Origin: a virus
DNA length: 40,870 nucleotides
IMG/VR virus record: IMGVR_UViG_2651869533_000044
Span: 1 to 40,870 of that record
Direction: 5' to 3' (one strand)
Both the position numbers and the translations under genes were made by a program. The notes beneath the pieces were generated by a model. That model did no database searches. It was not told the DNA's origin and worked only from the letters and a program-made list of their open reading frames with translations. Positions 395 through 40,870 of the stretch are shown one piece after another; the stretch's first letter is position 1; the number at the start of each line of letters is the position of its first letter.

Positions 395-421
395 ATTGAT
401 CTAATCCTTTAAAATATCTAT

Positions 422-492
422 TTGAGGGAGAAGGATTCGAACCTCCGCCGCCGGAGCCAAATTCCGGAGTTCTACCACTGAACTATCCCTCA
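422..492 (-). tRNA. tRNA-Gln (anticodon UUG)
   Basis: Minus-strand cloverleaf. Acceptor UGAGGGA/UCCCUCA, D arm GUUC-AGUGGUA-GAAC, anticodon arm CCGGA-AUUUGGC-UCCGG, 4-nt variable loop, T arm GGAGG-UUCGAAU-CCUUC, discriminator A, no encoded CCA. U1:A72 is typical of bacterial tRNA-Gln. Confidence 0.75.
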
Positions 493-493
493 T

Positions 494-1660
494 CTAATCC
501 TTATATGGGTCATAATTTCGCGCATCTGCCATTGCTACCCCAATAGGTTTCAATGTATGCAATATTTTCACTGTGTCTTTGTGCGCGTCCAGAACTTCTT
601 CAATGCGTTTATACGCTTGCGGAGCTTCGTCCACGTCAGCCCCTCTGAGTTCAACTCCGGCTCTTTCAACCCAAGATCGCATCGCGTCTTTGCTAATAAG
701 TCCATCTGTGAGCTGTCTTCCAGTTTTTCTGTCTCTCTTTCCCTTGGCCTGATTTCTTCCCATACAGCGTCCTGCGCCGTGTATGGTCGATCGTAAGGAT
801 TGGATGGATGACTCGTGCTCGCCTCCCTCGAGTATGACGCTGATATCTCCCATAGATCCTCCAACAAAGCTTTTTTGACCAGGAAAGGCAGGAGTAGATC
901 CTTTTCTGATAACCCAGAGATCTCTACCAAAATGGTGTTCTTTCCAAGCAAAGTTGTGGTGGTTGTGAATCTCTTCGACGATGTTTCCTCTAAGAATTTG
1001 CGCAACTCGTTGACATACCCAATCTCTCCCTGCATAAGCATATCGTCCAGCAAGCTCCATACATTTGAGGTATGTGATCCCAAGCTCAGAGCTTTCATCA
1101 AAAACCACCGGATCTGCATGTACTCCATCTACGCCTCCTCCTTCTCTGACAAAATGAGTAGCGATAGAGTGTCCAAGGCCGCGAGAACCAAAATGCACAC
1201 CCACCCATACTCTGTCCAACTCATCGACGAAAATGTCAACATAGTGATTGCCACCGCCGACAGTACCAAGTTGGTTATAAGCTTTGTCTTTAAGATCTTT
1301 GAGGAGGTCGAGTTCAGCCCATATGCCTTCGTCAAAAATTTCGTGATCCACTTTCTCATTGTTTTGCCTTCCAATTCCAAAGCTAATGTGCTTTTGGATT
1401 TCGTTCATATTCCGATATATTCCTTCACGCACTACAGAAGCATCGCAATCCAATCTAACAGCTTTATTCCCACATGCGATGTCATAGCCCACACCATTGA
1501 CACAAATAGCCTTATCAAGCCCAATAACACTACCAACGGGTAGACTATAGCCAAGGTGCCCATCAGCACACAAAGCGCCACATACCGCATTTGATTTCTC
1601 CATGGCAGATTTCATCTGAGACATTACTTCATCTTCAACAATTCCGAAGGTCTTGATCAT
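494..1660 (-). CDS. rtcB: RtcB RNA 3'-phosphate/5'-OH ligase
   Basis: 388 aa with the RtcB signature blocks GYDIACG, GGGNHYVDIF, HFGSRGLGH, IHNHHNF, IRKGSTPA, GGSMGD and HGAGR. Confidence 0.93.
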   Translation of the reverse strand: MIKTFGIVEDEVMSQMKSAMEKSNAVCGALCADGHLGYSLPVGSVIGLDKAICVNGVGYDIACGNKAVRLDCDASVVREGIYRNMNEIQKHISFGIGRQNNEKVDHEIFDEGIWAELDLLKDLKDKAYNQLGTVGGGNHYVDIFVDELDRVWVGVHFGSRGLGHSIATHFVREGGGVDGVHADPVVFDESSELGITYLKCMELAGRYAYAGRDWVCQRVAQILRGNIVEEIHNHHNFAWKEHHFGRDLWVIRKGSTPAFPGQKSFVGGSMGDISVILEGGEHESSIQSLRSTIHGAGRCMGRNQAKGKRDRKTGRQLTDGLISKDAMRSWVERAGVELRGADVDEAPQAYKRIEEVLDAHKDTVKILHTLKPIGVAMADARNYDPYKD

Positions 1661-2205
1661 ACTTTCACTACAGGGTTAGGAAGGATATTAAATTTTTCTT
1701 TATATTCTATGACCATCGCGATCAGAGAAGATTTTTTTTCTAAAAATCCTTCTACTATATTGCACTGACGACAAAGAATCGCTCTAAATTCCCCGGTTTC
1801 ATGACAGTGATCCACTTGTGGTTTTCTTTCTGTATCCGTCACATCAAATTCCAAACCACAACATGCACATCTATTTTTTTGCTGAAAAAGAACCTTTTCA
1901 TACATTTCAAGAGTAATGCCATATTTTTTCTTTAAAGTCTGATTTTTTGCTTTTTCAGGAAAATTTTTCCTCCAGTGTTTTCCATGATCTTTAGATCTTT
2001 TTTTGATCTTTTCGGCATTTTCAACATAATATTTTTTGTCATATCCATTTAACTTTCTCTTCTCAAGGGCCTTTCTAGAATATGCGTAGGTCTTATTCTT
2101 GTTTTCAGAGCACCATCCCTTGATATATGCTTTAATTTTTTCTTTATTCTTAGAGTAATAATCTTTTGAATTATTCACTCTATCTTCTTTGTTTTTGTAT
2201 GGCAT
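1657..2205 (-). CDS. endonuclease VII-domain (HNH-like) nuclease, possible free-standing homing endonuclease
   Basis: 182 aa. The C-terminus CACCG...QVDHCHETGEFRAILCRQCN matches the T4 endonuclease VII-type motif. The N-terminal half is Lys-rich with repeated YY-x-N-x-EKIK units. There is a 4-nt overlap with the rtcB start. Confidence 0.75.
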   Translation of the reverse strand: MPYKNKEDRVNNSKDYYSKNKEKIKAYIKGWCSENKNKTYAYSRKALEKRKLNGYDKKYYVENAEKIKKRSKDHGKHWRKNFPEKAKNQTLKKKYGITLEMYEKVLFQQKNRCACCGLEFDVTDTERKPQVDHCHETGEFRAILCRQCNIVEGFLEKKSSLIAMVIEYKEKFNILPNPVVKV

Positions 2206-2212
2206 AATAACA

Positions 2213-2512
2213 TTACACTACCACAATTGGACTTGGAAGACCATTTAAACGTGGTGCAAAATAAGGCCAATATTGGTTATAAGGAACAACATTATAGGGA
2301 GGCGCGCATACAGCAACCATCCCTAATCCTCCTGATCCACCAACAGCGCCCTGCTCAGCACTATCAGGTAAAGGCCAAGGGAATTGACGAGCACGAGGAG
2401 GAATGGGGGTGCAAACCATACCAAGTCCCGCAAAAGGGCTACCATTTCCGCCTGCGCTGGTAATCTGTGACGGTGGATTCGGGGGGTTGTTGCCTGCCAT
2501 ATCGTGCTCCAA
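2213..2512 (-). CDS. hypothetical Gly/Pro-rich protein (99 aa)
   Basis: ORF in operon orientation with GGAG 8 nt upstream of the ATG. Low-complexity composition, so the coding status is only moderately supported. Confidence 0.45.
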   Translation of the reverse strand: MEHDMAGNNPPNPPSQITSAGGNGSPFAGLGMVCTPIPPRARQFPWPLPDSAEQGAVGGSGGLGMVAVCAPPYNVVPYNQYWPYFAPRLNGLPSPIVVV

Positions 2513-2534
2513 TTGGTTTTATCGACATACTTTC

Positions 2535-2543
2535 ATTATAGCA
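2535..2543 (-). promoter_or_regulatory. extended -10 promoter element (TGCTATAAT) on the minus strand
   Basis: The minus strand reads ..GGATATGCTATAATGAAAG.. in the 87-bp gap upstream of ORF 2213-2512. No good -35 was seen. Confidence 0.35.
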
Positions 2544-2599
2544 TATCCATACAATCATTATTGTTAACAAAGTCCACAATATCATTATTGAAAGGTATC

Positions 2600-2848
2600 T
2601 CATTGCAAAGGATTGTCTTTTAGGAAAGATCCAAAATTAGCAACGTCTTCGAAACATTCAGAATCAATATGTTTGATAAGCCCACCCATTAAATAATTAC
2701 AGAACTGCCTATCTTTAGGCTCCATGATTGCGTAACAAGTCCAAAAACAAGAAAGGAATGCTATCATAGCTTCACTCTTATCTCTCTTGTATTCCTTCAC
2801 GAACTTGTCTGTAAAATGCGCAACATCGTCTATCATTTGATAGCTCAT
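2600..2848 (-). CDS. hypothetical protein (82 aa)
   Basis: ORF overlapping the terminase stop by 4 nt (translational coupling). No motif recognised. Confidence 0.55.
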   Translation of the reverse strand: MSYQMIDDVAHFTDKFVKEYKRDKSEAMIAFLSCFWTCYAIMEPKDRQFCNYLMGGLIKHIDSECFEDVANFGSFLKDNPLQ

Positions 2849-4365
2849 TCAAACCTCGGATGATACTTATTGTACATTCTTTCTGCTTCTGCATCAGATA
2901 TCCCACTACTAGCACTATCTATGTGGTCTTTTATCGCTATAGCTGCATATCTAAACGCATCGGCTCCATGGCTGTATTTATTGTGGACAGGTCTGTTTTT
3001 ATACATGTCATGAACCGGATCGTATTCTTTTTTGTAGTTCTCTAGGCACTTAATTAACTTGTCGCATTTCTCGGCATCGATCCATACTCTGGGGAATATC
3101 TCGCGAGCAACGTTGATTCCCTCATCTAGACTGATATTTAATGTCGCAAGCTTTATGAGCGGAACTCCGAGGCCAGCGGCCACGCTTTTGATTGATTCAC
3201 GAGTGGCCATGCTCCTGTTTTCGATATCATGAGGTCCAAAATATCTGTCATATAAATAAGGTTTTGATTTGATAAGTGAGAGATAATGGGCAAAGCCTTC
3301 TCCCGAATTTTCGTAATAGTCGATAACATGAATTTCCTGTCCTATATTCTGCCAAAAAACTATAGCGCATGAATCAAGCATACCTGGGTCAAAAGCTACG
3401 CATACACGAGCTTCTCTATCCCAAGGAACTCGAACATTAGTGCCAATTCTACCTTCAAAACGAGCTTCCCCAATCCACTTAGCATAGAAAGAACCATCTA
3501 CAGAGCTTTCAAACGCTTCCTCTGGCGTAGATGGGTATTCCCGTCTTTGGTCGTCTTTTTGTATCAATAATTTCCTATAATACCAAGACTTTTTTTGTAC
3601 AGAAAGGTTTATGCCCTTCATTCGCAGTGATTCAAAATATTCTTCTATCTCTTTTGGGATTATGGTAGGCTCTGTCTCTTCGTAATCTTTGCAATCATAC
3701 CAAGGAAAAAAATGAAACCTATAATCGAGAGGACTCAATTTTTTACCCATTGTCTTATCAGCTTGGGCTACCTGGCAGATATCGTAAAAAGCTCCTTCCT
3801 TTCCCTCCGCAGTACTTTCGATGAAGATGTATTGTTTATTTGCGACCGTGTTCAAGCTTCCAGTGATGATTTCACGAGCTTTATCAGGATAGTGAGAGCA
3901 GATCTTTCCAAATTCACTTATATGGAGATATTGCAACGTACTACCCCGCATCGAAGTACCTACGCGCAAGCTAGAATTATTATTGAAAACCATTTCCCTG
4001 GCGCTATCCGTGGTAGCCGTGCGAAGGGACTTGATGCAATCTGGCATCTTGTCATACGCGAACTTGATGCGCTTGAAAATATGTTCAGCGTCCTCTCTAG
4101 TGTGTGCTATTATTCCAGCTGCAACATTGGATCTAAAAAGGCAGATATCCAAAAAGTAGAGACAGACAAAAGTAGAGATTCCGAGCTGTCGGGCTTTAAG
4201 TATCACATTAGAGAACCATATATTTTCATATAATTGCTTTTGAGCATAATTTAACTTAAACAGAGTTGCCGACCCATCTTTATCCACGATAGTATATAGA
4301 TTTTGTAATCTCCACAAAGGGTCCGGAAGATATTTGTGTAAGTCGGCAAGCTGTTCAGGAGTCAT
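2845..4365 (-). CDS. terL: terminase large subunit
   Basis: 506 aa. N-terminal ATPase blocks (ILKARQLGISTF, LQYLHISEF) and C-terminal nuclease blocks (VCVAFDPGMLDSCAIVF, SHGADAFRY). The size is typical. Confidence 0.85.
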   Translation of the reverse strand: MTPEQLADLHKYLPDPLWRLQNLYTIVDKDGSATLFKLNYAQKQLYENIWFSNVILKARQLGISTFVCLYFLDICLFRSNVAAGIIAHTREDAEHIFKRIKFAYDKMPDCIKSLRTATTDSAREMVFNNNSSLRVGTSMRGSTLQYLHISEFGKICSHYPDKAREIITGSLNTVANKQYIFIESTAEGKEGAFYDICQVAQADKTMGKKLSPLDYRFHFFPWYDCKDYEETEPTIIPKEIEEYFESLRMKGINLSVQKKSWYYRKLLIQKDDQRREYPSTPEEAFESSVDGSFYAKWIGEARFEGRIGTNVRVPWDREARVCVAFDPGMLDSCAIVFWQNIGQEIHVIDYYENSGEGFAHYLSLIKSKPYLYDRYFGPHDIENRSMATRESIKSVAAGLGVPLIKLATLNISLDEGINVAREIFPRVWIDAEKCDKLIKCLENYKKEYDPVHDMYKNRPVHNKYSHGADAFRYAAIAIKDHIDSASSGISDAEAERMYNKYHPRFE

Positions 4366-4775
4366 TATTCTTCGTCTTCTTCACAACCGGCACAGTCAGA
4401 TTGGTTTTCCGACTGTTTTTTAATCCAAACCTCCACTTTCCCATCATTAATACATCGATAAAGAGAATATCCTAATTTTTCATATTCCAATCTATAATTC
4501 TCTAAATCTTGCAAAAAAAACGAATCAGTGGAAATCAATTTGTAATCCTCTCTTTTACAAACAACTTCAAAAATTTCATTTTTATTTTTAATATGAATAA
4601 TTTGTCTTTTAAGAATTTCTATATCTCTTTTTAATTCATCGATTGTTTCCATAAGACATTTAATTTGTTTTGATTTAAAACACTCATTCATTCTTTGCCA
4701 CCATGTTAATTGGTTTAATTTAAAGTTCATAATCCATTCATCATTTATAATCATATACTTGCCATATAAATTCAT
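4365..4775 (-). CDS. hypothetical coiled-coil protein (136 aa)
   Basis: ORF directly upstream of terL with a TAATG overlap. Central heptad-like stretch (ETIDELKRDIEILKRQIIHIK) and an acidic Cys-containing tail. Confidence 0.55.
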   Translation of the reverse strand: MNLYGKYMIINDEWIMNFKLNQLTWWQRMNECFKSKQIKCLMETIDELKRDIEILKRQIIHIKNKNEIFEVVCKREDYKLISTDSFFLQDLENYRLEYEKLGYSLYRCINDGKVEVWIKKQSENQSDCAGCEEDEE

Positions 4776-4835
4776 TTACAGCTCAGCTCGTTTATGATAT
4801 CTTGTAACAATATAAATACTTCTTCCATATTATCC

Positions 4836-5492
4836 TCAAATTTCCACTCTTATAGCACCGTTTACTGGATCATAATTCTCATCCATGCGGGATGCATTAA
4901 CAAATATTGTCTGCAAACCTAAAATATCCGTTTGTTTTCCGAAAGATTCGTGAATATGACCAAATACATGTAACTTTGGATTTATCTTGATAACCGTATC
5001 TTTAAGCGATTTGCTTCCTACTGAAGAATTAGCACTTCGTCTATTGCAAACCTTGTCTAGTATTCCAAAAGGAGGGGAGTGAGTTACTAAAATATCGATA
5101 TCTTTAGGAATTAAAGACCATTTTTCAGACAACTCTTCATCTGTATCAACGGTGAAAGCTTTACAATTTGAGTTCATACCCTTGAAAGTTTTAGTCCAAG
5201 GAGAGCCCCATATCTTTAGATGTTGAAATTCGGTTCCTGAGTCGCACAGATATTCAAAAGAACCAGAAACCTTGCCTATAGGTCCTTGGTAATTCTCTTT
5301 ATTGGCTTTGTTGTCGTGATTTCCGGCGATTACTATCTTTTTCTTATATTTTTGTTCATCAACCCACTCGAAGAAGTCAAAGCATTCAGAAAGAGTGTCT
5401 GATAAAGTCCAATCTCCAGCTACGATAAGAAGATCACCTGAAGGAAGTTTCGGATGATCTCCATGCATATCTGATATGCATGTGATTTTCAT
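4836..5492 (-). CDS. calcineurin-like metallophosphoesterase
   Basis: 218 aa with all five metallophosphatase blocks: ISDMHG, VAGDWT, GNHD, THSPP, GHIHE. Confidence 0.88.
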   Translation of the reverse strand: MKITCISDMHGDHPKLPSGDLLIVAGDWTLSDTLSECFDFFEWVDEQKYKKKIVIAGNHDNKANKENYQGPIGKVSGSFEYLCDSGTEFQHLKIWGSPWTKTFKGMNSNCKAFTVDTDEELSEKWSLIPKDIDILVTHSPPFGILDKVCNRRSANSSVGSKSLKDTVIKINPKLHVFGHIHESFGKQTDILGLQTIFVNASRMDENYDPVNGAIRVEI

Positions 5493-6460
5493 AATTCATA
5501 GTCCAGGTTGATGGATTTAAAGCTAATCATCTTGCCGTTGATGTGCTCCCAAGATCTGATAACCACACCTTCACGGATATGTCCATTGGCATAATTGCCG
5601 GTAGCGAGCGAACCAATGTCGGTTTCGTCGAAATTATCCCTTACTGTTAGAATCCGTACGGTTGGAAATCCAATCTTCTCACAAAAGTCTATGAAATCGT
5701 ACCCGTCCAGATAGCTCCTCTCTTCGATATTGTAGGCGCTGAACGCTAACCCATCTATCTCAGAAAACCCCATTGGATTCTTTTGAATCTTGGGACCACA
5801 AGTCTCCCACTGAAGGGCGTATCCTTCCGGGAGAATCTCTCTGAGATTATACTTGTTGGCAACCTTCCAATAGCCATTATCACCCTCTTCCAACTCTAGA
5901 TTTCTACTGCACACACCAAACTCGCCTTTCCACTTATAAGCCGTTGTAGAAGATCCGTCGGCCTTCTCTGTGACGTAGTATCGATGTGCCCATAAAGACG
6001 CTATATCTTCTTCACAGCGCTGCCAGTTAGGCTCGTCTGTCTTTGGTATAAATGAGGGGAAGTTTCCTTTGCATTTCCCCTCTAAAGAGGCGGGAACCGG
6101 CTTAACATATTTGATAACTCCCATAACTTCGGTGAGGTCATCTCCAATCTCATCATCTGATGCAACCCAAGGTGTGATTACGCACTCAGAAGGAGCGCCT
6201 TTGAAACGACGCATCTTAACGCGCCAATTAGAGCTTCTTAGAAATTGTACAAGAGAAGATTCGGGAACTATTGCGTCCTGAAGATAGACAAGGCAGGTGT
6301 GACCTACTTCGAAGTCTTCTTTCCGAACGACTCCGCGCCACTTACCGCCTTTTCCGCACACAACAGTAGCAGAAACAATGAAATCAGCTCCTGGAATAGC
6401 TTCCATTGAGATAATCTTACCGACGAAGACAAGATTTTTATTATTCTGTTGAGTGTCCAT
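5489..6460 (-). CDS. ATP-dependent RNA ligase, DraRnl (DRB0094)-like
   Basis: 323 aa. An N-terminal OB-like segment is followed by nucleotidyltransferase motif I TEKADGSS (KxDG), motif IV EGVVIR and motif V ISFKSIN. There is a 4-nt overlap with the phosphoesterase gene. Confidence 0.75.
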   Translation of the reverse strand: MDTQQNNKNLVFVGKIISMEAIPGADFIVSATVVCGKGGKWRGVVRKEDFEVGHTCLVYLQDAIVPESSLVQFLRSSNWRVKMRRFKGAPSECVITPWVASDDEIGDDLTEVMGVIKYVKPVPASLEGKCKGNFPSFIPKTDEPNWQRCEEDIASLWAHRYYVTEKADGSSTTAYKWKGEFGVCSRNLELEEGDNGYWKVANKYNLREILPEGYALQWETCGPKIQKNPMGFSEIDGLAFSAYNIEERSYLDGYDFIDFCEKIGFPTVRILTVRDNFDETDIGSLATGNYANGHIREGVVIRSWEHINGKMISFKSINLDYEL

Positions 6461-6601
6461 ACCTCTTTACTCCAAGCCAACGTCTGTAATTTCTAGTTAA
6501 ACAGTTACATAGGTGCTTTCCTTCAGAATGATGAGTAATACCTACCCTAGCTTTCTTCTGAAGGAACTTTTTCTTAGATAATTGCTTCAAACGTGTAACC
6601 G

Positions 6602-6883
6602 TTACACCGACTCAGGATTGGGCAGAACATCGTCTACAGGAACTACAGACCTAACGATCAATTTGATCTCTTCAGTCTTCAGGAGGTACCTACACTTTCC
6701 GATAGAGAACCCGAAGAACTCTCCTTGGTAAGACTGGTCCACGGCAGATGCAATATCTTCGTCTTCGACTTCAAGTTGTGTTTCTAAAGTCAAATTTCTA
6801 TCGCACTTATATACGAATATCCATCGGAATTTTGTTGTTTTATCTTCTTCTTTTGGATTTTGTTTCTTGATTGCTTTTGCCAT
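6602..6883 (-). CDS. hypothetical protein (93 aa from MAKAIKKQ; the ORF track extends to 6916)
   Basis: GGAG lies 7 nt upstream of the ATG at 6883. The longer start at 6916 would overlap the predicted promoter. Confidence 0.5.
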   Translation of the reverse strand: MAKAIKKQNPKEEDKTTKFRWIFVYKCDRNLTLETQLEVEDEDIASAVDQSYQGEFFGFSIGKCRYLLKTEEIKLIVRSVVPVDDVLPNPESV

Positions 6884-6903
6884 CACAGACTCCTTTTTTT
6901 TGG

Positions 6904-6932
6904 ATCTTAATGGCACTTCGGATTTACGACAA
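6904..6932 (-). promoter_or_regulatory. sigma70-like promoter (TTGTCG-17-TAAGAT) for the leftward operon
   Basis: On the minus strand, TTGTCG is at 6932-6927 and TAAGAT at 6909-6904 with a 17-nt spacer, immediately downstream of the iteron cluster. Confidence 0.35.
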
Positions 6933-6968: not shown

Positions 6969-7078
6969 GTAAGGTTTTCTGTTAGGGTAATTTGGCAAAT
7001 TTTACTTGTCAGCGTAAGGTTTTCTGTTAGGGTATGTAAGGTTTTCTGTTAGGGTATGTAAGGTTTTCTGTTAGGGTC
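6969..7078 (+). repeat. four direct copies of the 21-bp iteron-like repeat GTAAGGTTTTCTGTTAGGGTA
   Basis: Copies start at 6969, 7014, 7036 and 7058. The last three are in exact 22-bp phase and the first lies 45 bp upstream. Confidence 0.9.
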
Positions 7079-7498
7079 TGCCCTATGAGATTTGACTCAT
7101 TAAGTTATTAAGATATTAATAACAGGGAGCCGTTTTGTACGGCCCCCCGTTATTTAAAAAAAGTAGATACATCAGCATTAAGATTTGGTAAATATATCAA
7201 TAAAATGCCGATTTCTGCTTGCAAGGTACCTAGAATTGATTTACACAGTCCCAGACGTGATTTGATATGTTTTTTGCATTATATTCGCTTAAATCGAAAA
7301 TTAGACGCGTTCTGAATCGTTTTTTTCGTGTCTGACACCCAGAAGATCGAAAACTTTACGGATTGCTCTTCTGGTAGAATTTTAAGTATTTCATATATAT
7401 AGGTCAGCTATCTGTCCAAATAGCATCTGTCAAGTTTTTGTCTTGTGTCAAGCCCTACCCCCTCCCCTATCCTTAAACCTGCCCCTCCCTCACCCCTA

Positions 7499-7685: not shown

Positions 7686-7709
7686 ACAACATTTTATTTT
7701 CTATTTCAA

Positions 7710-7880
7710 GGCTGGGCATGGCGAGGCCAGGCGAGTCAAGGCATGGCAAGGCTAGGCTGGGCATGGCCAGGCGAGGCTTTGCGTGGCGAGGCAAGGTTTA
7801 TTGGGGGCGAAAGCTCATATTTCAAGGCTGGGCGAGGCAGGGCAGGGCATGGCTAGTCGGGGCTAGGCATGGCGAGGTTT
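7710..7880 (+). repeat. (GGCNN)n pentamer arrays 1 and 2 (18 + 11 units) joined by a 26-nt GNRA-hairpin linker
   Basis: Array 1 is 7710-7799, the linker ATTGGGGGCGAAAGCTCATATTTCAA is 7800-7825, and array 2 is 7826-7880. Both arrays hold perfect 5-nt register within the block and end in GGTTT. Confidence 0.9.
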
Positions 7881-7903: not shown

Positions 7904-8491
7904 ATGACAAAAGTAAAAGCAAATATTGAAATCGAAGGATGCAAACCATTTCTATGGCATACTTTTCCATTGGACGCTCTTTCAACCACCAAGAAAAGAG
8001 AAGGAACGACGGGAGATAACAAATCAGAATGGAAAGACACCGTATTGATGGACAATGATCGACGCCTCTACATTTACAACAGCTATCTTTTGTCATCGAT
8101 TGCCGATGGAGGAAAAGAAATTAAGCAGGGTCGCGGCAACATCTCCAAAAAGGTATCATCAACTCTTGACATCGAAGAATATAGACTTTTTCTCACAGAT
8201 CTTACCGTACCATCTGAAGAAGACTTAACAAGAAATGACAGCGATCTCGTTTATTTAGACGTTCGAGCTGTTGTCAATCCAATGACAAAAGGCAGAAATT
8301 TGCGCTATCGTATCGCTGCCCGTCCAGGTTGGAAGCTTAAATTCGTAGTAGGCTGGGATGATCGCATTCTCTCTAAAGATCAGATCAAATCTTGTATAGA
8401 AAACGCCGGAGATTTACAAGGAATTGGAGACGGCAGAGGTTTAGGATTCGGAAGATTTAAACTTCTGAAATTTGAAATGATTAAGAATTAA
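7904..8491 (+). CDS. hypothetical protein (195 aa), possibly a RAMP-type (Cas7/Csm3- or Cas6-like) RNA-binding fold
   Basis: AGGAA lies 6 nt upstream of the ATG. It is one of only two ORFs of 60 aa or more in the 2.9-kb island. The C-terminal GIGDGRGLGFG fits the RAMP glycine-rich loop GhGxxxxxGhG. The fold assignment is from memory of RAMP patterns, not from an alignment. Confidence 0.55.
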   Translation: MTKVKANIEIEGCKPFLWHTFPLDALSTTKKREGTTGDNKSEWKDTVLMDNDRRLYIYNSYLLSSIADGGKEIKQGRGNISKKVSSTLDIEEYRLFLTDLTVPSEEDLTRNDSDLVYLDVRAVVNPMTKGRNLRYRIAARPGWKLKFVVGWDDRILSKDQIKSCIENAGDLQGIGDGRGLGFGRFKLLKFEMIKN

Positions 8492-8500
8492 TTTTTTCAA

Positions 8501-8742
8501 GGCTGGGCGAGGCTAGGCAAGGCAGGGTTTATTGGGGGCGCAAGCCCATATTTCATGGCTTGGAGTGGCAAGGCCAGGCATGGCAAGGCACGGCTAGGCA
8601 AGGCACGGCGTAGCCAGGCATGGCAAGGCAAGGCAGGGCAGGGCAAGGCAAGGTTTATTGAGGGCGTGAGCTCATTTTTCGGGGCAGGGAATGGATGGGC
8701 AAGGCGAGGCTGGGCTAGGCCAGGCTAGGCAAGGCAAGGTTT
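8501..8742 (+). repeat. (GGCNN)n pentamer arrays 3, 4 and 5 (6 + 20 + 12 units) joined by two 26-nt GNRA-hairpin linkers
   Basis: Arrays are 8501-8530, 8557-8656 and 8683-8742. Linkers are 8531-8556 (ATTGGGGGCGCAAGCCCATATTTCAT) and 8657-8682 (ATTGAGGGCGTGAGCTCATTTTTCGG). Confidence 0.9.
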
Positions 8743-11272: not shown

Positions 11273-11691
11273 GTGCAATAAAAGACTTTCATGCTTGGTG
11301 TTTTGACCAAGCTGAGCTCATACGACAGGGTAATTATACGCAACTGGATAGAGAAAACTTAATAGAGGAAATCGAATCATTGGGCCGTCAAGAAAGGGAT
11401 AAGTTAACGAGTGCATTGAGGATACTATTTATGCATCTATTGAAGTATATCTATCAACCTGAATACCGTTCTAAGAGCTGGTTATATTCTATCGCTGAAG
11501 AGAGGAGACAAATTAAAAAGTTCATGTCTAATACTCCAAGTTTGAAGAGTTCTTTCGATGAATGCGTGGAAGAAGCTTATGAGAAAGCTAGGTACCAAGC
11601 TGCAAGAGAGACTGGCATAGACTTGGAGACATTCAACGAAGAATATGCGTTTGATATCGATGATGCACTAAAAGAGGGGTGGTTACCGTGA
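11269..11691 (+). CDS. DUF29 family protein
   Basis: 140 aa. DFHAWCFDQAELIRQGNYTQLDRENLIEEIESLGRQERDKLTSALRILFMHLLKY..SW matches the DUF29 consensus. Confidence 0.65.
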   Translation: MSAIKDFHAWCFDQAELIRQGNYTQLDRENLIEEIESLGRQERDKLTSALRILFMHLLKYIYQPEYRSKSWLYSIAEERRQIKKFMSNTPSLKSSFDECVEEAYEKARYQAARETGIDLETFNEEYAFDIDDALKEGWLP

Positions 11692-12233
11692 AAATAGGCT
11701 ACATAAGAGTAAGCACAATAGAGCAAAACACGGCCCGTCAATTAGACGGCATGGTTTTGGACAAAGTATTTACAGAAAAATTGAGTGGTAAGAGCACAAA
11801 TAGGGAGCAACTGCAAGCTTGCTTGGCGTATTGCAGAGAGGGCGATGAGCTTTACGTGCATAGCATCGATAGGATGGCTAGAAATCTGGTGGATTTAAGA
11901 AAGATTATCGAGGGGCTGAACACAAAGAAGGTTTCCGTTCACTTTGTTAAGGAGAACCTCATATTTTCTGGTAAAGAAAATGCTATGGGCATGCTTTTAT
12001 TGAATGTTATGGGGGCATTTGCGGAGTTTGAGAGGGCTCTTATGCTTGAAAGGACTATGGAAGGTGTTGCCAAGGCTAAGGCTGAAGGGAAGTATAAGGG
12101 AAGAAAGCCTAGCTTGAATGAAGAACAAGTTAAGAGCTTAAAAGAACGCTTGAAATTAGGTATTTCCAAGTCTAAAGTATCTAGGGAATTCAACATTAGC
12201 CGTGATACCGTTTACAACTATCTAGGTGATTAG
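11679..12233 (+). CDS. small serine recombinase (resolvase/invertase family)
   Basis: 184 aa. Catalytic N-terminus GYIRVSTIEQNTARQ, then the SIDRMARN block, then a C-terminal HTH (ISKSKVSREFNISRDTVYNYL). Confidence 0.9.
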   Translation: MVTVKIGYIRVSTIEQNTARQLDGMVLDKVFTEKLSGKSTNREQLQACLAYCREGDELYVHSIDRMARNLVDLRKIIEGLNTKKVSVHFVKENLIFSGKENAMGMLLLNVMGAFAEFERALMLERTMEGVAKAKAEGKYKGRKPSLNEEQVKSLKERLKLGISKSKVSREFNISRDTVYNYLGD

Positions 12234-37740: not shown

Positions 37741-39801
37741 CTAAGGAGCTACAGGAGCCGAAGCGTTAGCTTTTGCTTGTTCCTTTCCCTCTAGTTCATG
37801 AATAAACGCCAATTTAGCACGCAAGTTCTCGATATCTATAGATTCAAGCTCTTTGACAGCCTTCAATAGATTCAGAACACTAGCCGTCTTGTCTTCCTCC
37901 GCCCTAGCAATACGCTCAGCGCTCAATGCTGCATCTAACTGGATCTTGTTGATACGTTCTGCTGCGAGGGCTCTATCGGACTCGGATTTTGAGTCTACAC
38001 CGCGAGTGATTGTCTCTTGGTTCTGCATTTGAAGCTCGGCTTGTTTCTGAGCCTGTTCTTGGGCTGCTTTCATCTCACCTGCCATTCTTTCACCTATCAC
38101 ACGCTTATCGTGCAAGGAAGAGGCGCTAATGATCTCTGAGTCGGTTATATTCACTCCCATTGCCTTCAGAGCTAAGCGACCAGCAAAGTCTGTCTGACGC
38201 TGAGTGTCTGTTAGCAGACCTTCTTCAACAACTACGCTGTACTTTGTGAAGGATTTTGAGAAGAATTCCGGAGTAGGATCTTTCTTTGTGATAGCCTTGA
38301 TTTTCTCTGGAGTATAGTTCAGTTGCATTAATTTTAGAGTTTTCTCGCCCAGTAGTCTCTGAGACTCTCTCAAACCATCGAAAATATCTTGCAAATTGAT
38401 GAGACCTGCTGACTGTCTCATCTTTCCTAGAATTCCAGTAATTTCGACCTTTTCATTGTCAGCCATTCCAAATAGTTCAGAGTTAACCCCTGCAATTTCC
38501 ATCATATCTTTTTCAAACTCGCCTTCTAACTGGAACATAGAGGCGGGGATATCTGCGGCTTGTAGACGTTGAATATCCGTCATTTGAGCTTCTGGCTTTA
38601 ACCAGATGACCTGACCTTGTCCTGTTTTATAGAGAGAAGACGGGTTTGAGACGCTATTGGTTTTAGCGATAAACCCGCTGTTGAGCTGATTGTCCAAGAT
38701 ATCGACCATCTTAGAGCGTCTTTTATTTATCTCTGTTTGAGGATCTCTAACTATTCTAACTAACGATTGAATCTTCCATGTATATAGATCATAAGAAGGC
38801 TCAAAAATGCAAAAAAATGGAACAAAAGGATAATCATTTAGTCCAAATGGGTCCTTACCATAATAAATTAGTTGTCCTTCTACAATTATACCTAGATCGA
38901 CACTTCGAACAGGCTTTCTGATAACCTCTAATTGAGGGTATAACTCTCTAAACAGCTTTAATCTCTTTCTATCTCCATTCCACTCTCTAGTTTCTCCAGT
39001 CTCCATATCGACCAGAACATCTTTGGTTTCCCAACGCGTCTTCCAGTATTCTGTATAGTTAAGAAGTTTCTGCATTCCCCACTGCCTAGCGTAAGGCATA
39101 TAGGTGAATTTGTCATCGCGGCTACCCCAAGGCAATCGAGAGATAACATCCTCTTTATCGGGATGAAGGGAGATCACTTCTGTTCTGGATAGGAACTTGC
39201 GTCGGGAGATGAAAGAGCAATCTGAGAGATCTTTCTTGGTGAGAAATGGGTCCATAATCACCGCATTCCAAGAATCGTGGTGGAACCGGATATCTCCTGA
39301 GATTGGGTCAGATCTATAATCAACCCAAGGACTTACGAACGAAAGACCTGTTGTAAGCGCTCCTTTAAAACCTTCAGAGATGGTTTCGTATCCTCCACAA
39401 GACTGCATTATGTATTGCATCACATCTGATTGAATCTCCGCAGTGAGTTCAGATGAGTCTTCAATAGGGCTGATAACTGTGGCCAGTCGGTTCTTGCGCT
39501 GATATCCCTGTACCAGATTAATGAGCCGTCGTATTTTATTGTATGTGAAGGAGGATCTTCTTTGATTGTTGAGGTAGGAGAGTTCTTCCAAACTCCATTG
39601 ATTACCGAGATAGTATGATAAATCCTTGTAAGCTTCTGCATAATACGTATTCCATAACTGATAAGCTCTTTCGTAGTTCTGACCGAATTCTTGTATTACA
39701 TCTTGGTGTTGCGCCAACCTCTCATCGGAGGATATTTTTTTTCTATAATCATCTAGGAAGTCTTTTGAATCGGAGGAGTAGTTTGACATGGGGTTGGACA
39801 T
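37741..39801 (-). CDS. portal protein
   Basis: 686 aa. It has the YYLGNQWSLEE block near the N-terminus, a long C-terminal charged coiled region, and lies upstream of scaffold and capsid. Confidence 0.72.
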   Translation of the reverse strand: MSNPMSNYSSDSKDFLDDYRKKISSDERLAQHQDVIQEFGQNYERAYQLWNTYYAEAYKDLSYYLGNQWSLEELSYLNNQRRSSFTYNKIRRLINLVQGYQRKNRLATVISPIEDSSELTAEIQSDVMQYIMQSCGGYETISEGFKGALTTGLSFVSPWVDYRSDPISGDIRFHHDSWNAVIMDPFLTKKDLSDCSFISRRKFLSRTEVISLHPDKEDVISRLPWGSRDDKFTYMPYARQWGMQKLLNYTEYWKTRWETKDVLVDMETGETREWNGDRKRLKLFRELYPQLEVIRKPVRSVDLGIIVEGQLIYYGKDPFGLNDYPFVPFFCIFEPSYDLYTWKIQSLVRIVRDPQTEINKRRSKMVDILDNQLNSGFIAKTNSVSNPSSLYKTGQGQVIWLKPEAQMTDIQRLQAADIPASMFQLEGEFEKDMMEIAGVNSELFGMADNEKVEITGILGKMRQSAGLINLQDIFDGLRESQRLLGEKTLKLMQLNYTPEKIKAITKKDPTPEFFSKSFTKYSVVVEEGLLTDTQRQTDFAGRLALKAMGVNITDSEIISASSLHDKRVIGERMAGEMKAAQEQAQKQAELQMQNQETITRGVDSKSESDRALAAERINKIQLDAALSAERIARAEEDKTASVLNLLKAVKELESIDIENLRAKLAFIHELEGKEQAKANASAPVAP

Positions 39802-40639: not shown

Positions 40640-40825
40640 TCATCTAGGCTCCAAAAACATCGCTCTTTCATGTTTAGTATATTTTGAAACAGAAACTAAG
40701 TAGAAATACTTGCCGTCGTCTGGGCTAAAAAGACAGCTATAGTTCTTGTCTCTTTTCTTATCAACTAAGTTACATAATTGCCTAGAATATGCAAAAAAGT
40801 CTTCGTCAAATTCTTTATTGCTCAT
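40640..40825 (-). CDS. hypothetical protein (61 aa)
   Basis: Its start lies inside the terminal repeat (equivalent to position 56) and overlaps the stop of ORF 53-394 across the circle junction. Confidence 0.5.
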   Translation of the reverse strand: MSNKEFDEDFFAYSRQLCNLVDKKRDKNYSCLFSPDDGKYFYLVSVSKYTKHERAMFLEPR

Positions 40826-40870
40826 AAAATCCTTATAAAATCAACATCTTCGGAATAGTATCCATTTGAA
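40770..40870. repeat. 101-bp terminal direct repeat (copy 2)
   Basis: Identical to bases 1-101. Confidence 0.9.

Follow-up and report, generated by a model that had tools for sequence, protein, structure and literature searches.

Two RNA ligases, an MPPED2-type phosphoesterase and a tRNA gene without a kinase: a candidate RNA-repair module in an uncultured 40.8-kb phage

Two RNA ligases of different chemistry, a metallophosphoesterase (MPE) of the MPPED2 family and a tRNA gene were found in one string of genes in the window, a 40,870-nucleotide stretch of viral DNA (positions 1 to 40,870 of IMG/VR record IMGVR_UViG_2651869533_000044). An Rnl5-type RNA ligase of 323 amino acids (aa; 5489-6460, minus strand) is followed by the MPE (218 aa; 4836-5492, minus strand), and an RtcB RNA ligase of the short bacterial and phage form (388 aa; 494-1660, minus strand) is followed by a tRNA-Gln(UUG) gene (422-492, minus strand). 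A preliminary description of the window had placed an RtcB, a DraRnl-type ligase and a metallophosphoesterase at these positions, and the family matches reported here, which lie far beyond chance in Pfam and the PDB, bear this out. In our judgment there is an even chance that the three enzymes and the tRNA make up a kinase-less accessory module that would protect the translation apparatus by RNA repair.

The ligase was identified by sequence and by structure. Residues 161-308 match the Pfam RNA_ligase family (PF09414, E = 9.7e-22), residues 10-79 match the N-terminal PHA02142 OB domain (PF21189, 7.7e-8), and the protein also matches PHROG 968 'RNA ligase' (1.2e-41). The only solved relatives found by sequence in the PDB were the entries of NgrRnl from Naegleria gruberi (5cot, 2.1e-27, residues 34-318). 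An AlphaFold model with a predicted local distance difference test score (pLDDT) of 87 was matched by Foldseek to the same structure (E = 3e-27, template modelling (TM) score 0.78, 335 columns); T4 Rnl2, Rnl1, archaeal Rnl3 and fungal Trl1 matched its catalytic domain only, with TM scores of 0.47 or less. The lysine nucleotidyltransferase fold presumed in the preliminary description is therefore present, with K166 as the lysine of the KxDG motif. Motif I, K166-A-D168-G169, aligns with K170-L-D-G of NgrRnl, and K166/D168/G169, E219, E297/G298 and K315 (motifs I, III, IV and V) do not vary among 15 homologues. Since the protein scores 106.2 bits against NCBIfam TIGR02306 (the DRB0094 equivalog), below the cut-off of 151.15, it is best regarded as a divergent member of the Rnl5 (DraRnl/NgrRnl-type) family and not as a DraRnl equivalog. 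It shares with DraRnl and NgrRnl an N-terminal OB domain and a C-terminal nucleotidyltransferase domain without a C-terminal appendage, but its identity to NgrRnl is only ~29%. Its gene context is also different: the partner of DraRnl is a DEDDh-like exonuclease (PMC5397189), whereas the phage gene has an MPPED2-type enzyme, RtcB and tRNAs as neighbors. Rnl5 enzymes seal 3'-OH/5'-phosphate nicks in duplexes with RNA as the 3'-OH strand (PMC4408790); sealing is Mn-dependent, and DNA is accepted as the 5'-phosphate and template strands (PMC4408790, PMC5397189). The physiological roles of the family have been called 'uncharted' (PMC5397189).

The phosphoesterase matches Pfam Metallophos (5.1e-15). 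Searched against the PDB as a single sequence, it returned rat MPPED2 as the only match (1.1e-32); with a 20-sequence profile this match strengthened to 1.9e-48, and the next ones, Lmo2642 (1.5e-3), Rv0805 (0.27) and SbcD (0.97), were insignificant. A structural model (pLDDT 88) was likewise matched best by MPPED2 in Foldseek (E = 8e-17, TM 0.83), with aq_1956 and the RNA-debranching enzyme Dbr1 (~1e-7), SbcD (4.5e-4) and Mre11 (1.7e-3) as distant neighbors. All five binuclear motifs, D8-x-H10, G26-D27, G57-N58-H59-D60, H138 and G178-H179-I-H181, are conserved in relatives. Sequence and model together thus identify the protein as a predicted binuclear metallophosphodiesterase of the MPPED2 family. 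MPPED2 is its sole significant solved relative (36% identity) and, as in MPPED1, MPPED2 and the fly orthologue dMpped, all metal motifs are kept, including the canonical histidine of GHxH. The phage protein differs from these enzymes in being shorter, 218 aa compared to chains of 296 aa, and the animal enzymes have been studied as cyclic-nucleotide hydrolases, with no known link to an RNA ligase (PMC10547211).

Two other identities were considered for the phosphoesterase and rejected. A group with the Mre11/SbcD nucleases is contradicted by the far stronger match to MPPED2 in both the profile search (SbcD, 0.97) and Foldseek (SbcD 4.5e-4, Mre11 1.7e-3, MPPED2 8e-17), and a partner ABC-ATPase of the SbcC/Rad50 type is not possible because the genome has no Walker-A protein. 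A phosphatase of the Pnkp or lambda-phosphatase type appeared neither among PDB hits to E = 10 nor among the top 50 Foldseek matches, and phosphatases of the PP1 and calcineurin types matched the model only with E above 0.009. The preliminary description had proposed that the phosphoesterase heals 3' ends 'as in bacterial Pnkp', and this part of it is not supported. MPPED1, MPPED2 and dMpped are reported to cleave diesters and not monoesters; they favor 2',3'-cAMP over 3',5'-cAMP or cGMP, a preference whose biological relevance is described as 'unknown' (PMC10547211). Because the family is reported to act on diesters only (PMC10547211), the phage enzyme alone should be unable to make a 3'-OH. 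By analogy, an MPPED2-type enzyme could open an RNA 2',3'-cyclic phosphate but would not by itself yield 3'-OH or 3'-OH/5'-phosphate ends.

RtcB matches Pfam PF01139 over its full length (residues 29-376, 1.1e-64, 219.7 bits compared to a cut-off of 27) as well as PHROG 1075 (2.4e-74). In an alignment to RtcB of P. horikoshii, the equivalents of D65, C98, N202/H203, H234, H329 and H404 are present, and the motifs DGH, DIxCG, GNH, H(x)GSRGLGH, HN and HGAGR are kept. Residue roles were taken from the P. horikoshii structures, in which these residues are the metal ligands and H404, the histidine of HGAGR, the residue that is guanylylated. The phage RtcB is intact, with all of its Asp, Cys and His metal ligands and the GMP-accepting His. 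It falls below the equivalogs for the E. coli-type RtcB (NF007153, 119.6 bits compared to 407) and the PrfH-linked RtcB2 (TIGR03073, 97.7 bits compared to 271.8), and no RtcA, RtcR, archease or PrfH gene was found in the gene string with Pfam and PHROG. Like the RtcB of the E. coli rtcBA operon and the PrfH-linked RtcB2, it has a full-length RtcB domain with every metal-binding residue and the GMP-accepting His. It differs from them in its neighbors, which are an HNH gene, to which it is coupled, and a tRNA gene in the window; in relatives it lies directly upstream of an Rnl5 ligase. RtcB is common in phages (689 INPHARED records) and has been annotated in mycobacteriophages, Bacillus, Listeria and jumbo phages.

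The tRNA-Gln(UUG) gene was found by ARAGORN and by Rfam (66.7 bits) and begins one base past the RtcB stop codon. Rfam at its gathering threshold gave tRNA only; no other noncoding RNA partner, such as a Y RNA, was seen. Read by eye, the anticodon loop is A32-U33-UUG-G37-C38. A G at position 37 seems unusual in a Gln tRNA, and altered anticodon loops have been connected with the evasion of anticodon nucleases by phage tRNAs.

The preliminary description had reported that the ligase and phosphoesterase genes overlap by 4 nt and that the cluster is interleaved with terL and ends in the tRNA, and the gene order confirms both. The ligase stop and the phosphoesterase start share the tetranucleotide ATGA, and the stop of an endonuclease VII (EndoVII)-type HNH gene and the start of RtcB share another ATGA. 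The ligase is thus translationally coupled to the MPE, and the EndoVII-type gene to RtcB. The large terminase gene, TerL (2845-4365, minus strand), splits the ligase-phosphoesterase pair from the EndoVII-RtcB-tRNA group; all genes of the string are co-directional with short gaps.

Relatives were then examined for the recurrence of this gene set. Homologues of the ligase number in the thousands, and those nearest to it (57-67% identity) come from metagenomic contigs of ~38-42 kb that carry P22-type portals. Scanning IMG/VR with the single ligase sequence gave no matches, so that an alignment-based scan was needed; it provided a ligase-anchored sample of 60 IMG/VR loci. The non-redundant ligase loci number 52, of which 34 are well flanked, with at least 3 kb on both sides. 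An MPE homologue is near the ligase in 41 of 62 loci and on the same strand in 33. Counting the window, 18 ligase loci have RtcB (61-71% identity); it never lies on the strand opposite to the ligase and in most cases is its immediate upstream neighbor (median offset -1334). Among the well-flanked non-redundant loci, 23/34 have an MPE within 6 kb and 12/34 have RtcB; all 12 of the latter also have the MPE. A typical order, that of L028, is small second metallophosphoesterase, RtcB, orf61, Rnl5, GroES-like protein, MPE, tRNAs and TerL. RtcB-Rnl5-(x)-MPE is a recurrent cassette in metagenomic relatives of ~40 kb, often followed by tRNA genes. Both orders of the ligase-MPE pair occur: ligase before MPE, abutting or overlapping, in the window and L063, and MPE before ligase with a 4-nt overlap in L066-69 or nearly contiguous in L026 and L054. 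Several further genes were seen in these loci. The small metallophosphoesterase of L028 (189 aa, 8142-8711) is weakly PdeM-like and lies upstream of RtcB; a GroES/Cpn10-like gene (L028, 11097-11402) stands between ligase and MPE in 13 relatives; and one sublineage (L002, L003 and L004) has an intein in TerL (L002, 11807-14026, 739 aa, Pfam Intein_splicing).

Genes for tRNAs adjoin 12/17 RtcB-positive compared to 11/36 RtcB-negative loci (p = 0.008, ignoring shared ancestry). They lie directly beside the RtcB-Rnl5-MPE cassette in L015, L017, L019, L028, L030, L032, L038, L041, L046, L050, L173 and L182. The commonest of these cassette-adjacent tRNAs is Asn(GUU); Asp(GUC), His(GUG) and Thr(UGU) are recurrent. 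tRNAs with GUN anticodons are the target set of anticodon nucleases of the colicin E5 type. The adjacency fits a function centered on tRNA and translation. A standalone HAD_PNKP 3'-phosphatase (Pfam 3.8e-24, with a DxDxT motif) adjoins the ligase in the RtcB-negative loci L005 (9011-9574), L039, L043, L054 and L066-69 (12705-13322 in L066). RtcB and this phosphatase were never found in the same ligase locus, which is suggestive of mutual exclusion, but the numbers are too small for significance (hand estimate, p ~0.1). In the examined gene string of the window there is no HAD phosphatase, in contrast to these relatives.

The preliminary description had noted two ligation chemistries without a kinase, and the search of the complete genome supports this. 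No convincing Walker-A/P-loop protein was found in any open reading frame (ORF) of at least 50 aa. The only two matches of a Walker-A scan, in the OB domain of the ligase and at the C-terminal end of an ORF of 102 aa, were both judged spurious. In 64 loci the only Walker-A proteins up to 6 kb from the ligase are terminases and a DnaC-like protein, and none is a polynucleotide kinase. The HAD_PNKP proteins of the relatives were considered as kinases and rejected, as they are phosphatase-only proteins with the DxDxT motif and no P-loop. In ~10 relatives the ligase is followed by a conserved ORF of 185 aa, for which neither Pfam nor NCBIfam gave a match. Without a kinase in the genome, a heal-and-seal route of the T4 style is incomplete: the conversion of a 5'-OH break into an Rnl5 substrate is not encoded.

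From the chemistry of the families, the proposed module could work as follows. RtcB would reseal breaks with 2',3'-cyclic-phosphate or 3'-phosphate and 5'-OH ends, the kind that ribonucleases working without a metal, for example anticodon nucleases, HEPN enzymes and toxins, leave behind. The substrates of Rnl5 would be 3'-OH/5'-phosphate nicks in base-paired RNA, such as those that metal-dependent nucleases make in the stems of tRNA or rRNA. The most plausible role of the MPPED2-type enzyme would be to open 2',3'-cyclic phosphates on RNA ends or nucleotides; the resulting 3'-phosphate ends could pass to RtcB or, in some relatives, to the HAD/PNKP-type 3'-phosphatase beside the ligase. The phage tRNA may replace host tRNA that has been depleted. 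Such a scheme would not be T4-style heal-and-seal, since there is no polynucleotide kinase in the genome or in the relatives' cassette. Since none is encoded, Rnl5 would need either ends with a 5'-phosphate already in place or the help of a host kinase.

Several observations weigh against a repair module. As a kinase is lacking both from the genome and from the surroundings of the ligase in the 64 loci, the classical route from an RNase-cut end to an Rnl5 substrate is missing, and the sole physiological evidence for any Rnl5 enzyme concerns Deinococcus DNA repair after irradiation (PMC5397189). The MPE is opposite in strand to the ligase in 8 of the 41 loci with both. It is also much commoner than the ligase (>533 IMG/VR matches), and the ligase is present in only 10 of 48 well-flanked MPE-anchored loci. 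A portal-anchored sample, built from a narrow portal alignment and unbiased for accessory genes, gave 39 well-flanked loci, in which the MPE was found 12 times, RtcB 5 times and the ligase only 3 times. The 3 ligase-positive loci carry all three genes, yet they belong to one sublineage. The nearest portal relatives of the window (65-82% identity) have no ligase; the MPE occurs in some of them, and in some RtcB (up to 81% identity) lies between TerL and the portal, the place that it has in the window. In unrelated phages the MPE sits amid nucleotide-metabolism genes and not ligases: it is beside a deoxynucleoside monophosphate kinase and a nucleoside deoxyribosyltransferase in Tunturiibacter phage Tunturi_5, and near ribonucleotide reductase (RNR) and ThyA in a Flavobacterium phage. 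Homologues occur in 297 (ligase) and 98 (MPE) INPHARED records, and no ligase-MPE pairing was found there outside the lineage; one INPHARED genome has both genes, 340 kb apart. Neither a ligase nor an MPE was found near RtcB of Tunturi_5, AP-16-3 or Mwe-JY26. The co-occurrence statistics given here also leave shared ancestry out.

These data make ligase, RtcB and MPE patchy accessory genes, and they raise the main rival explanation. Three independent accessory genes may have gathered in a variable region beside the packaging genes, with the MPE acting on free nucleotides and not on RNA ends. The MPE might then salvage 2',3'-cyclic nucleotides released by RNA degradation, or it might break down immune signals made of cyclic nucleotides or oligonucleotides. 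We regard this explanation as possible but somewhat improbable. Besides the patchy distribution of all three genes, it is favored by the MPE occurring without a ligase in 38 of the 48 MPE-anchored loci and in 9 of the 12 portal-anchored MPE loci, and by its nucleotide-metabolism neighbors in Tunturi_5 and the Flavobacterium phage. Characterized MPPED enzymes hydrolyze cAMP, cGMP and 2',3'-cAMP (PMC10547211), and a counter-signal role has been proposed for phage phosphodiesterases of the calcineurin-like type (PMC7824862). This explanation does not account well for the enrichment of the MPE near the ligase, which was found in 23/34 ligase loci compared to 9/36 ligase-negative loci (p = 7e-4, a crude value that ignores shared ancestry). 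The start/stop overlaps in both gene orders and in separate sublineages, and the MPE in 12/12 RtcB-positive ligase loci, also argue against it. RtcB shows a similar enrichment (12/34 compared to 2/36, p = 0.002, equally crude and ignoring shared ancestry). Since the ligase is present in only 10/48 MPE loci, part of the ligase-MPE adjacency may still reflect a shared hot-spot for accessory genes. The narrower claim that the MPPED2-type phosphodiesterase is a dedicated RNA-end partner of the ligases in a kinase-less tRNA-repair cassette (RtcB, Rnl5, MPE and tRNAs, with a HAD phosphatase in some relatives), where it would open 2',3'-cyclic phosphates, is offered only tentatively, and we consider it unlikely.

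A less likely explanation is the repair of nicks in phage DNA or RNA-DNA hybrids. Rnl5 would seal nicks with a ribonucleotide 3'-OH, such as primer remnants or ribonucleotide patches, after the MPE had cleaned the 3' end. This would parallel Deinococcus, where the ligase activity of DraRnl aids survival and genome reassembly after ionizing radiation and its operon partner is a DEDDh 3'-exonuclease-like protein (PMC5397189). Nicks with a 5'-phosphate require no kinase, Rnl5 enzymes accept DNA as the 5'-phosphate and template strands (PMC4408790, PMC5397189), and Dbr1, SbcD and Mre11 are among the weaker structural neighbors of the MPE. However, the MPE matches no nuclease nearly as well as it matches MPPED2. 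The ligase is also tightly and recurrently linked to RtcB, tRNA genes and the PNKP-type phosphatase, and the genes sit with packaging and accessory genes instead of the replication module at 14-17.5 kb. We consider nick repair improbable.

Healing of tRNA 3' ends without ligation was also considered less likely, and of the explanations weighed here we give it the least credence. The MPE, together with the HAD phosphatase of relatives, would clear cyclic-phosphate, phosphate or pyrophosphate blocks after an attack on the acceptor stem or CCA end; the host CCA-adding enzyme would then restore the tRNA, and the ligases would serve other lesions. The adjacent tRNA genes and the occurrence of two kinds of 3'-phosphoesterase, but never a kinase, agree with it. 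It leaves the translational coupling of MPE and ligase unexplained, and the cassette showed neither a gene for a CCA-adding enzyme nor a related one.

Phage-encoded RNA repair is classically represented by T4 Pnkp and Rnl1, which act against PrrC. The proposed RNA-repair module would share with T4 Pnkp and Rnl1, and with bacterial Pnkp/Hen1, the logic of a phage-encoded reversal of RNA cleavage by host defense. A phosphoesterase also adjoins an ATP-dependent ligase, and relatives carry a PNKP-type HAD phosphatase. The window set differs in having no 5'-kinase and a second, kinase-independent ligase, RtcB. Its other ligase appears to be of the duplex nick-sealing Rnl5 type, unlike the tRNA-loop-specific T4 Rnl1, and its phosphoesterase is of the MPPED type and not of the HAD or lambda-phosphatase type. 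The preliminary description had called it unusual to carry both chemistries, and this stands only in part. Jumbo phages have any combination of RtcB with ATP-dependent RNA ligases, along with tRNA arrays (Iyer et al. 2021, PMC7824862), and in our sample the trio is present in 12 of the 34 well-flanked loci. In the jumbo-phage sets calcineurin-like phosphatases occasionally substitute for HAD phosphatases, and the sets have been read as countermeasures to tRNA-cleaving immunity (PMC7824862). The window cassette differs from them in being compact, in a genome of 40.8 kb, with Rnl5 instead of Rnl1 or Rnl2 and no accompanying kinase. We found no prior description of a compact kinase-less cassette of Rnl5, RtcB and an MPPED2-family enzyme in phages of ~40 kb, in a search that excluded the main comparative survey of RNA repair.

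The window is the complete genome of an uncultured phage, circularly assembled and 40,769 bp long, because its ends (1-101 and 40770-40870) are an exact 101-bp direct repeat. From ~6916 down to 53 every convincing gene is on the minus strand, in the transcription order orf104 (6602-6916), ligase, phosphoesterase, orf136 (4365-4775), TerL, orf82 (2600-2848), the EndoVII-type HNH gene (1657-2205), RtcB, tRNA-Gln(UUG) and a DUF7448 gene (53-394; Pfam PF24240, 5.9e-27). The string begins with orf104, upstream of the ligase, and crosses the circular junction from DUF7448 into the P22-type portal gene (37741-39801, same strand) and then the head and tail genes. The product of orf136, in the position of a small terminase, has no Pfam, PHROG or NCBIfam match, and its stop overlaps the start of TerL; orf82 lies between TerL and the EndoVII-type gene. 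TerL (PHROG 2 and others) is context and lies outside the module. Its best match, at 44% amino-acid identity, is TerL of Erwinia and Klebsiella phages, and the phages with the closest TerL matches bear siphovirus names, yet the portal is P22-type. A megablast of 400-6500 found no near-identical phage in INPHARED.

Of ~220 related loci that were examined, only L061 has a homologue of the EndoVII-type HNH protein (182 aa; Pfam PF02945, 2.5e-17; PHROG 2914). The gene is probably mobile or associated with packaging, likely inserted recently, and not a component of RNA repair. A DUF7448 gene directly follows RtcB in Sinorhizobium phage AP-16-3 (L075, 7222-7557; 51% identity by tblastn). Another lies between two tRNA-Ser genes in the tRNA array of the T5-like phage EscoHU1 (L079, 3974-4330), and in SPO1-like Bacillus phages the gene lies between those of the RNR subunits.

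Upstream of the string is a noncoding region (6975-7450, minus strand) with direct repeats, a hairpin and TTGACA-type hexamers. Four direct repeats of 21-22 nt (minus strand, ACCCTAACAGAAAACCTTACRT) lie at 6975-7077; Tandem Repeats Finder reported 7014-7077 with a period of 22 and 100% matches. A GC-rich hairpin at ~7120-7150 is next to the repeats, upstream of orf104 and the ligase. Scans for promoters and terminators, which bear on whether the string is one operon, gave site counts no higher than in shuffled sequence. The region may be a promoter or operator, and the repeats could serve as operators or iterons. Other genes of the phage, outside the string, code for a serine invertase/recombinase, an exonuclease, a RecT-like annealing protein and a replication initiator. 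The first of these (11679-12233, plus strand; PHROG 125, 2.2e-61) hints at a temperate lifestyle or else at an invertible segment. Pentamer-periodic arrays of (GGCAA/GGCAG/GGCTA)n at 7707-7877 and 8498-8739 flank an ORF at 7904-8491 (PHROG 4652) and also yield spurious ORFs rich in Arg, Gly and Lys.

Two observations hint at an Acidobacteriaceae host. The cassette is present in L070 (CAWDQB010000068.1, 1-12605; 70% identity for RtcB, 59% for the ligase and 42% for the MPE), at one end of a contig of 242 kb that binning assigned to an uncultured Acidobacteriaceae metagenome-assembled genome, though such binning can be wrong. The phage region there has ~38-49% G+C and may be a prophage. The best INPHARED matches of both RtcB and the MPE are in a jumbo phage of Tunturiibacter (Acidobacteriota) from tundra soil.

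If the three genes are unrelated neighbors in a hot-spot, the finding reduces to the correct annotation of three known enzyme families. If the MPE is an RNA-end partner of the ligases, this would be the first physiological role for viral Rnl5 ligases and would explain the preference of MPPED enzymes for 2',3'-cyclic phosphates. The cassette provides a small, genetically tractable setting for the study of both the role of Rnl5 and this preference. It also suggests exposure of small soil-bacterial phages to RNA-cutting defenses of two kinds, metal-independent and metal-dependent.

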